Numbered from the stretch's first letter, positions 44,422 to 44,583 are shown. The stretch: 64,000 nt of DNA from an archaeon GW2011_AR20 (GCA_000830315.1 CP010426.1:60670-124669), one strand, 5' to 3'. Numbers and translations: made by a program. Notes: generated from the letters alone by a model not told the origin.

Positions 44422-44583
44422 GTGGGAGTGCCGGAGAAACTTAAACCGGAATCTGGAAATAATTCAAAAATTACCAAAGAACGGGCAGGAAAGTTAGAAA
44501 ATAACTTTGCCAAACTTAAGTTTTCCAAGGATGAGAAATCCTGTGGCTTAGTGCCTACGCAGGTTCAAATCCTGTCTCCCACA
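44422..44583 (+). tRNA. tRNA-like gene, 162 nt, with about 75 nt of intervening sequence; class-II-like, tentatively Ser(GGA)
   Basis: Acceptor GTGGGAG/CTCCCAC + discriminator A; T-arm GCAGG-TTCAAAT-CCTGT; D-arm CCGG...CCGG; CTGGAAA loop-like sequence at canonical positions 32-38; variable-arm hairpin GGC-TTAGT-GCC; anticodon stem partner not contiguous. Confidence 0.5.

Follow-up and report, generated by a model that had tools for sequence, protein, structure and literature searches.

The 64,000-nt stretch of DNA analyzed here (the window; archaeon GW2011_AR20, CP010426.1:60670-124669) carries at 44422-44583 (+) a 162-nt gene, reading GTGGGAGTGCCGGAG...CTCCCACA, with a perfect 7-bp acceptor stem (GTGGGAG at 44422-44428 with CTCCCAC at 44576-44582, followed by A73 at 44583), a T-arm (GCAGG-TTCAAAT-CCTGT at 44559-44575), and the variable hairpin GGC-TTAGT-GCC of a class-II long variable arm. 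Intron-less orthologs measure 84-85 nt, and the 77-nt surplus is intervening sequence. We are highly confident that this is a functional, colinear tRNA-Leu(UAA) gene with four short protein-spliced introns of the bulge-helix-bulge (BHB) type, in an AT-rich DPANN host that is most likely a relative of Woesearchaeota. A first-pass annotation, made from the sequence alone, had described a class-II tRNA gene with about 75 nt of intervening sequence, and the spliced cloverleaf and the measured surplus bear this out; it had also proposed a long intron or multiple introns, possibly at non-canonical positions, of which the multiple, non-canonical introns stand (there are four) while the single long intron does not. 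The elements it had listed (acceptor stem, T-arm, variable hairpin, CCGG...CCGG, CTGGAAA, and the palindromes AAGTTA/TAACTT and AAACTTAAGTTT) are all present where it placed them. The features of the locus are as follows, with an arrow marking the splice site within a bulge.

44389-44396 (+): TATA-box-like element TTTATAAA, its centre about 30 nt 5' of tRNA position 1, with purine-rich GAAAG before it; read from the sequence
44422-44436 (+): exon 1, tRNA positions 1-15, with acceptor GTGGGAG, U8, G9, D-stem CCGG, A14, and G15; from spliced alignment to ortholog L028 and ARAGORN
44437-44451 (+): intron a, 15 nt, in the D-loop at 15/16; helix CCGG (exon, 44431-44434) / CCGG (intron, 44446-44449), 4/4
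44452-44458 (+): exon 2, TCTGGAA, D-loop positions 16-20a (U16-C17-U17a-G18-G19-A20-A20a); from ARAGORN and spliced alignment
44459-44479 (+): intron b, 21 nt, in the D-loop at 20a/21; helix CTGG/CCAA (3/4), bulges AA↓A and AG↓A, inner helix of 5 bp, TAATT/AATTA
44480-44489 (+): exon 3, AACGGGCAGG, positions 21-30, with A21, A22, D-stem CGG, G26, and anticodon-stem CAGG
44490-44513 (+): intron c, 24 nt, in the anticodon stem at 30/31; helix GGCA/TGCC, bulges GG↓A and AA↓A, inner helix of 6 bp, AAGTTA/TAACTT
44514-44520 (+): exon 4, ACTTAAG, positions 31-37, with anticodon UAA at 44517-44519 between U33 and G37
44521-44537 (+): intron d, 17 nt, at the canonical 37/38; helix CTTA/TGAG including one G-U, bulges AG↓T and AA↓A, weak inner helix
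44538-44583 (+): exon 5, positions 38-73, with A38, TCCTG, variable arm GT-GGC-TTAGT-GCC-TAC, T-arm, CTCCCAC, and A73; no encoded CCA
44584-44592 (+): T-rich tract TTTATTTTT, directly 3' of the gene; read from the sequence
46467-48063 (-): archease (46467-46883, PF01951) and RtcB tRNA-splicing ligase (46915-48063, PF01139), about 2-3.5 kb downstream

In archaeal splice motifs, exon nucleotides -6 to -3 pair with nucleotides -6 to -3 from the end of the intron, and the cut falls two nucleotides into a 3-nt bulge. The introns were derived from this geometry rule alone and occupy local positions 16-30, 38-58, 69-92, and 100-116 of the 162-nt gene. A spliced dynamic-programming alignment to the intron-less ortholog L028, which is blind to splice motifs, returns exactly the same four boundaries. 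Removing the four introns in silico leaves an 85-nt sequence, GTGGGAGTGCCGGAGTCTGGAAAACGGGCAGGACTTAAGATCCTGTGGCTTAGTGCCTACGCAGGTTCAAATCCTGTCTCCCACA, which ARAGORN calls as tRNA-Leu(taa). Its class-II cloverleaf is clean: the acceptor stem has 7 bp, the D-arm contains G18G19 and G13-A22, an anticodon stem of 5 bp closes the loop CUUAAGA, the variable arm is long, and A73, U33, a purine at 37, and T54-psi55-C56 are all in place. The spliced product is almost identical to the intron-less orthologs at the syntenic locus, with a handful of differing positions. Archaeal leucyl-tRNA synthetase (LeuRS) recognizes A73 and the variable arm as identity elements, and the gene has both, A73 at 44583 and the variable arm GU-GGC-UUAGU-GCC-UAC, together with UAA at 44517-44519. 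The five exons are colinear within 162 nt; the gene is neither split nor permuted. Three independent metagenome assemblies (one from JGI, two from ENA) contain this 162-nt sequence unchanged, and it is therefore not an assembly artefact.

This structure changes how several segments are read. The serine identity (GGA) suggested by the first-pass annotation gives way to leucine, given the UAA anticodon, the ARAGORN call on the spliced sequence, and the alignment to L028. CTGGAAA, which had been placed as a loop at positions 32-38, belongs to the D-loop exon TCTGGAA and is a contiguous part of the D-loop in orthologs L026 and L028. The apparent CCGG/CCGG D-stem is in fact the 4-bp central splice helix of intron a, whose motif occupies the 5' strand of the D-stem; in the true D-stem, the exon CCGG pairs instead with ACGG (44481-44484). 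Both reported palindromes exist, with AAGTTA/TAACTT forming the inner helix of intron c, the third intron, and AAACTTAAGTTT consisting of the anticodon loop CUUAAG, which is self-complementary, and the intron sequence on either side of it. A tRNA-Ser(GGA) with one intron was also considered as a candidate and rejected since CUGGAAA has no stem partner and the discriminator is A, not G73.

Of the standard tools, default ARAGORN and the Rfam tRNA model gave no call on the unspliced gene, the latter even at E<=10 on a 451-nt slice, where Rfam returned only noise matches (DPB, ST7-OT3, a tmRNA fragment) and no intron family. The same Rfam model scores 51-58 bits on the intron-less orthologs L009, L016, and L028 and misses the multi-intron genes of L012, L018, and L026, as it does the window gene. 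A whole-window scan for a T-arm with a matching 7-bp acceptor returned four loci only, every one a tRNA; the match at this locus is not due to chance. In the public gene calls of all three assemblies, a 77-amino acid open reading frame (ORF) without a Pfam match overlies the tRNA gene (44365-44598 (+) in the window; 13466-13699 (-) in L001). This ORF is most likely a spurious call, made possible since the tRNA went undetected.

Search modes that allow one interruption do return tRNA models, which would support a gene with one long intron and another identity; besides the Ser(GGA) of the first-pass annotation, the candidates are Glu(UUC) and Ser(AGA). ARAGORN in intron mode proposes tRNA-Glu(ttc) with a 65-nt intron, which we rejected for its G-A stem pair, C37, and 26-nt variable region. 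Enumeration of single deletions gave Ser(AGA) (76-nt deletion), Glu(ttc), Gly(tcc), Ile, and other models, none of which combines U33 with a proper loop. As a group, the single-intron models work only with a G-A pair within the anticodon stem, a C at 37 or a G at 33, and a variable arm of 26 nt, or else with a D-loop that lacks G18G19, and none matches any ortholog, whereas the four-intron parse reproduces the sequence of intron-less orthologs and accounts for CTGGAAA as the contiguous D-loop of L026 and L028. We therefore consider a single long intron extremely unlikely.

The BHB motif search that the first-pass annotation had recommended finds a core at each of the four introns. The central helices CCGG/CCGG, CTGG/CCAA, GGCA/TGCC, and CTTA/TGAG pair at 15 of 16 positions, a score that none of 20,000 intron shuffles reached (the best shuffle scored 13). 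The core, a 4-bp helix with two 3-nt bulges, is in register with the boundaries defined by the orthologs and pairs 4/4 in introns a, c, and d and 3/4 in intron b. Intron a has the bulges AG↓A and AA↓T and adopts a loop-closed, relaxed bulge-helix-loop (BHL) form. The inner helix comprises 5 bp in intron b, 6 bp in intron c, a weak 3 bp in intron d, and is absent from intron a, and the four motifs fall in the relaxed BHL or BHBh' classes rather than the strict hBHBh' one, in which the outer and inner helices each have 2 bp or more.

We found that this motif geometry is conserved among relatives of the gene. A genome scan (one genome per species; query, the 3' end GGTTCRAATCCTGYCTCCCACA) returned 26 loci, all of them tRNA-Leu genes in Woesearchaeota, Nanoarchaeota, or Pacearchaeota metagenome-assembled genomes, and a further 89 loci came from a metagenome scan whose pattern included intron d, which biases the sample toward intron-d carriers. 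With spliced parses anchored on ACTTAAG and on tRNA position 15, the genome and metagenome loci together comprise 63 distinct Leu(UAA) gene sequences. Across the 152 introns of these genes, 92% of central-helix positions pair in register, versus 25-50% when the pairing is slid by 1-3 nt. Inner helices are above chance in introns b (mean 5.5 bp) and c (mean 4.7 bp), compared to approximately 1.6 bp in shuffles, while introns a and d are mostly loop-closed across relatives.

The central helices also covary with their exons. Intron a pairs as CCGG/CCGG, CCAG/CTGG, or CCGA/TCGG in different relatives, and intron b as CTGG/CCAG, GGAA/TTCT, or GGTC/GACT according to the type of D-loop. All 42 of the class-c introns of relatives (42/42) pair 4/4, with the compensatory variants GGCA/TGCC, AGCA/TGCT, and GACA/TGTC, and GGCT/GGCC in a Leu(UAG) paralog. 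For intron d, the intron strand of relatives reads TAAG, TAGG, TGGG, or GGAG. In a MAFFT alignment of the 13 distinct four-intron genes, in which the acceptor, the T stem, the variable stem, and the four central helices were scored, the proposed pairs are paired in 92.6% of cases versus 33-50% when slid; none of 500 shuffles equaled this value, and eight pairs changed on both sides.

Our data indicate that the number of introns at this locus varies from zero to four. Among the 63 distinct genes, 4 have no intron, 5 have one, 28 have two, 13 have three, and 13 have four. The orthologs L009, L013, L016, and L028 contain none (84-85 nt), L011 contains c and d, L026 contains b, c, and d, and the window gene, L012, L018, and L029 contain all four. 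Intron a is absent from L026, where CCGGAG-TCTGGAA is contiguous, and intron b is missing in L011 and in the intron-less orthologs. The intron-less genes of L009, L016, and L028 share with the window gene the acceptor stem, an identical anticodon arm (CAGGA-CUUAAGA-UCCUG), the loop UUAGU, the T-loop, A73, and the neighbourhood, while L013, likewise intron-less, has a different anticodon stem. The order Leu(UAA)-Thr(GGU)-157-amino acid protein (p157)-adenylate kinase (ADK) is kept in approximately 17 relatives with zero to four introns.

Exons and introns differ greatly in conservation. The spliced window sequence is identical to the mature sequence of L026 and differs from those of L012 and L018 by one compensatory variable-stem base pair each, while introns are 36-82% identical between relatives and differ in length. 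In the closest variant, L032 from Hainich groundwater, all five differences are intronic, and one of them, in the inner helix of intron c, turns an A-U into a G-U. Where four-intron genes have the TCTGGAA D-loop, exon 2 varies at the first base only (changed in L034), the variable stem shows compensatory changes among relatives (GGC/GCC, GGG/CCC, GAC/GTC), and the variable loop UUAGU is invariant in all but three related Leu genes. The nearly invariant exons beside diverging introns reflect selection on the exons. Furthermore, TTA accounts for 46% of leucine codons and 4.8% of all codons in the long ORFs of the window, which implies heavy demand for tRNA-Leu(UAA).

These observations bear on whether the locus is a decaying tRNA pseudogene, or the relic of a mobile-element attachment site, that acquired insertions and yields no functional tRNA. 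Such a relic would fit the silence of the standard finders, the 77-amino acid ORF that public gene callers put over the locus, and a predicted minimum-free-energy fold that is not a cloverleaf. It would not be expected to keep its exons at zero to two differences, compensatory ones, across species whose introns are 36-82% identical, or to confine all five L032 differences to introns. The insertions bear a conserved, covarying splice motif, the promoter element and the synteny are conserved, and the gene decodes the most used leucine codon. We regard a pseudogene as highly unlikely.

For the functional four-intron gene, we infer the course of transcription, cleavage, ligation, and intron removal from its sequence. 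The TATA box at 44389-44396 would drive a precursor of approximately 162 nt; AAAGTTTTATAAAT or TTTATA(T/A)A lies at an equal upstream distance in most tRNA-Leu genes of the genome scan, and we take the element as a putative promoter. The T-rich tract at 44584-44592 is likely an archaeal transcription stop. Within the precursor, exon nucleotides 3-6 upstream of each 5' splice site would pair with intron nucleotides 3-6 upstream of the 3' splice site, which would place the splice sites two nucleotides into the flanking 3-nt bulges or loops. The exon segments used would be the 5' strand of the D-stem for motif a, C17-G19 of the D-loop for b, G25-A28 at the junction of the D-stem and anticodon stem for c, and C32-A35 of the anticodon loop for d. 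The four central helices draw on separate sequence, such that all could form together, and a fold constrained to all four motifs is feasible at -39.9 kcal/mol. The unspliced RNA is also more structured than its shuffles (fold z = -4.35). Since the motifs occupy segments of the D-stem, D-loop, and anticodon loop, the cloverleaf D-stem and anticodon stem would form only after splicing. The outer helix of intron d, which is the anticodon stem, would be complete only without intron c, and this suggests that c is removed before d. The splicing endonuclease EndA would cut the eight sites, RtcB with archease would join exons of 15, 7, 10, 7, and 46 nt, and the resulting 85-nt class-II tRNA would receive its CCA and be charged by LeuRS.

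Several points weigh against this account. Transcription, cleavage, and ligation are modeled solely on the established pathway. The four-motif fold is not the minimum-free-energy fold, which lies at -49.8 kcal/mol and contains an 11-bp helix, GGAGAA(A)CUUAA / UUAAGUUUUCC (44433-44444 with 44516-44526; local 12-23/95-105), that links exon 1 and intron a with exon 4 and intron d, in competition with the splice motifs. In the unspliced RNA, introns a and d have no proper inner helix, and the outer helix is approximately 1 bp for all four introns. Relaxed motifs have been reported to need a broad-specificity endonuclease, a tolerance tied to special loops (Kaneta et al. 2018, PMC5829648). The precomputed Pfam tables contain no EndA in the 64-kb window, and the EndA of a relative (L014, below) has no insertion relative to the strict enzyme of M. 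jannaschii (1A79; pairwise alignment). Lastly, a second, intron-less copy of tRNA-Leu(UAA) may lie elsewhere in the genome, beyond the window.

With all four motifs relaxed, cleavage requires an enzyme that accepts weak outer helices as well as loop-closed motifs. L014, a Woesearchaeota relative with a 30/31 intron, encodes a 184-amino acid EndA at 955-1509 (-) with PF02778 and PF01974, which was found by tblastn with an M. jannaschii EndA query and confirmed by Pfam and PDB. By sequence, the solved structures nearest to it are those of the N. equitans alpha subunit (3IEY_A) and of M. jannaschii alpha4 (1A79). An EndA that looks like a simple alpha-type unit is surprising in a lineage rich in relaxed, non-canonical introns. 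An RNase Z-like gene (1564-2454 (+) of L014) adjoins this EndA. The close relatives L103 and L086 likewise have archease in the neighbourhood of the tRNA-Leu gene, and RtcB was not seen there in the other fetched loci; the proximity of RtcB and archease to the tRNA pair may be a coincidence.

The relaxed motifs of introns a and d, and the lack of EndA in the 64-kb window, are what one might see if the insertions were kept as expansion segments or removed by a route other than endonuclease and RtcB, such as self-splicing, and splicing itself is here deduced from sequence. At 15-24 nt, the segments are far below group I or group II ribozymes, whose cores run to hundreds of nucleotides, and retention would destroy both the D-stem and the anticodon stem. 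Each segment, moreover, has the 3-nt bulge, 4-bp helix, and 3-nt bulge in register with the ortholog boundaries, RtcB and archease are present, and relatives encode EndA (one found, in L014). Retention or another route of removal is thus very unlikely, and we favor excision of the four introns by EndA and RtcB.

Relatives of the gene offer some indications of how its introns arose. A Leu(UAG) paralog in L004 and L014 (119 nt) has introns at 30/31 and 37/38, like two of the sites of the window gene, with helices that fit its own exons (GGCT/GGCC, CTTA/TAAG). Its intron d begins with TTTTCC, a start kept in many relatives of the window gene. The intron sites shared by Leu(UAG) and Leu(UAA) appear to point to inheritance via gene duplication or to copying between isoacceptors. 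Immediately after CAGG, intron c opens with ACTCAGA or ACTGAG in seven relatives (L012, L116, L034, L102, L090, L062, L091), an opening that looks copied, in degenerate form, from the anticodon-loop exon ACTTAAGA. Intron c of L114 and L094 contains the tandem units TGCYAA-ACTCAGAT and then TGCYAA-ACTTAAGAT, of which L109 has a degenerate version, and the 9-mer ACTCAGAAG is present twice in L116. These duplicated anticodon-loop cassettes suggest that introns may be born, or may grow, by local duplication. The ACTCAGA cassette would read the anticodon CAG (Leu), but with A37 rather than the G37 of other Leu genes here; more speculatively, one gene could give two anticodons by alternative splicing.

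Other tRNA genes of the window are interrupted as well, and the total comes to six introns in four tRNA genes. A tRNA-Thr(GGU) gene at 44632-44717 (+), 48 nt downstream of the Leu gene, contains a 13-nt intron at 37/38; it scores 61 bits with Rfam and is mislabeled as Phe(aaa) by ARAGORN in intron mode. The Leu-Thr gene pair is conserved in many relatives. At 63138-63238 (+) lies a 101-nt tRNA-Pro(UGG) gene. One 27-nt intron (63158-63184) interrupts its D-loop after G19, with a nearly textbook motif (helix GCTT/GAGT, bulges GG↓A and AA↓T, a 7-bp inner helix). Spliced by the splice-motif rule, the gene gives 74 nt and a clean Pro(tgg) cloverleaf, while enumeration of double deletions is too permissive to settle its structure. 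Rfam matches it partially (29.1 bits), and ARAGORN in intron mode mislabels it as Ile(tat). Its 3' end had no match in a scan of viral contigs, and no Pro ortholog was present in 750 kb of fetched loci.

The number of introns in the window gene exceeds what has been described for tRNA genes. The stated maximum per tRNA gene is three introns, both in reviews and in the tRNAscan-SE 2.0 paper (PMC4033280, "a maximum of three introns"; PMC8450103, "can contain up to three"; PMC3728597), and the window gene surpasses it with two introns in the D-loop and one that splits the anticodon stem. Our full-text literature searches, outside which much subscription literature lies, returned no four-intron tRNA, and priority is not certain. 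On balance, we lean toward the view that no tRNA gene with four protein-spliced introns has been documented before and that such genes recur, with 13 distinct four-intron genes within a zero-to-four series in groundwater Woesearchaeota. With its pattern of presence and absence at one syntenic locus, this unusually clean series provides material for the study of intron evolution. The host lineage, a mesophilic one within DPANN, is unexpected, and the only EndA found in a relative looks like a simple alpha-type unit; as non-canonical relaxed introns are currently tied to specialised endonucleases, the lineage allows a direct test of how enzyme specificity relates to gene disruption.

The tRNA for the commonest leucine codon is here invisible to ARAGORN and the Rfam model and is overwritten by a hypothetical protein call in public assemblies, and it is likely that tRNA censuses of DPANN, and the tRNA losses or split tRNAs inferred from them, are distorted. 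Incomplete tRNA sets have been noted in DPANN, with undiscovered disrupted tRNA genes predicted (Kaneta et al. 2018, PMC5829648), and a 2026 preprint on Nanobdellota described order-level "missing" tRNAs by tRNAscan-SE and suggested split genes. Heavily interrupted colinear genes are an alternative explanation for the missing Nanobdellota tRNAs and, if true, could explain part of the "missing tRNAs" of DPANN.

Among known systems, the tRNA genes of Thermoproteales (Pyrobaculum, Thermofilum, Caldivirga) resemble the window gene in that they are colinear, contain several short introns at canonical and non-canonical sites with BHB or relaxed motifs, undergo removal by EndA and RtcB, and are missed by standard finders. 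They contain at most three introns (PMC4033280, PMC8450103), compared to four in the window gene, two of them in the D-loop. Their hosts are hyperthermophilic crenarchaea, whereas the host here is a mesophilic, AT-rich, Woesearchaeota-like member of DPANN, and the crenarchaeal EndA is an (alpha-beta)2 enzyme with a specific loop, in contrast to the plain 184-amino acid alpha-type unit of the relative L014. ARMAN-2 (Micrarchaeum) and other DPANN share the lineage and introns outside 37/38; ARMAN-2 differs by its three-unit epsilon2 endonuclease, and we found no report of a four-intron gene there. In the red alga Cyanidioschyzon merolae, highly disrupted nuclear tRNA genes contain up to three BHB-type introns; many interrupt the D-loop or D-stem, and the motifs include relaxed hBH and BHL forms (PMC3728597), but this organism is a eukaryote, three is the maximum, and some of its genes are permuted, while the window gene is colinear. 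The split and tri-split tRNAs of Nanoarchaeum equitans and Caldivirga maquilingensis have BHB-like joins, the same enzymes, and similar break positions; they are encoded at separate loci and joined in trans, whereas the window gene keeps its five exons in order within 162 nt.

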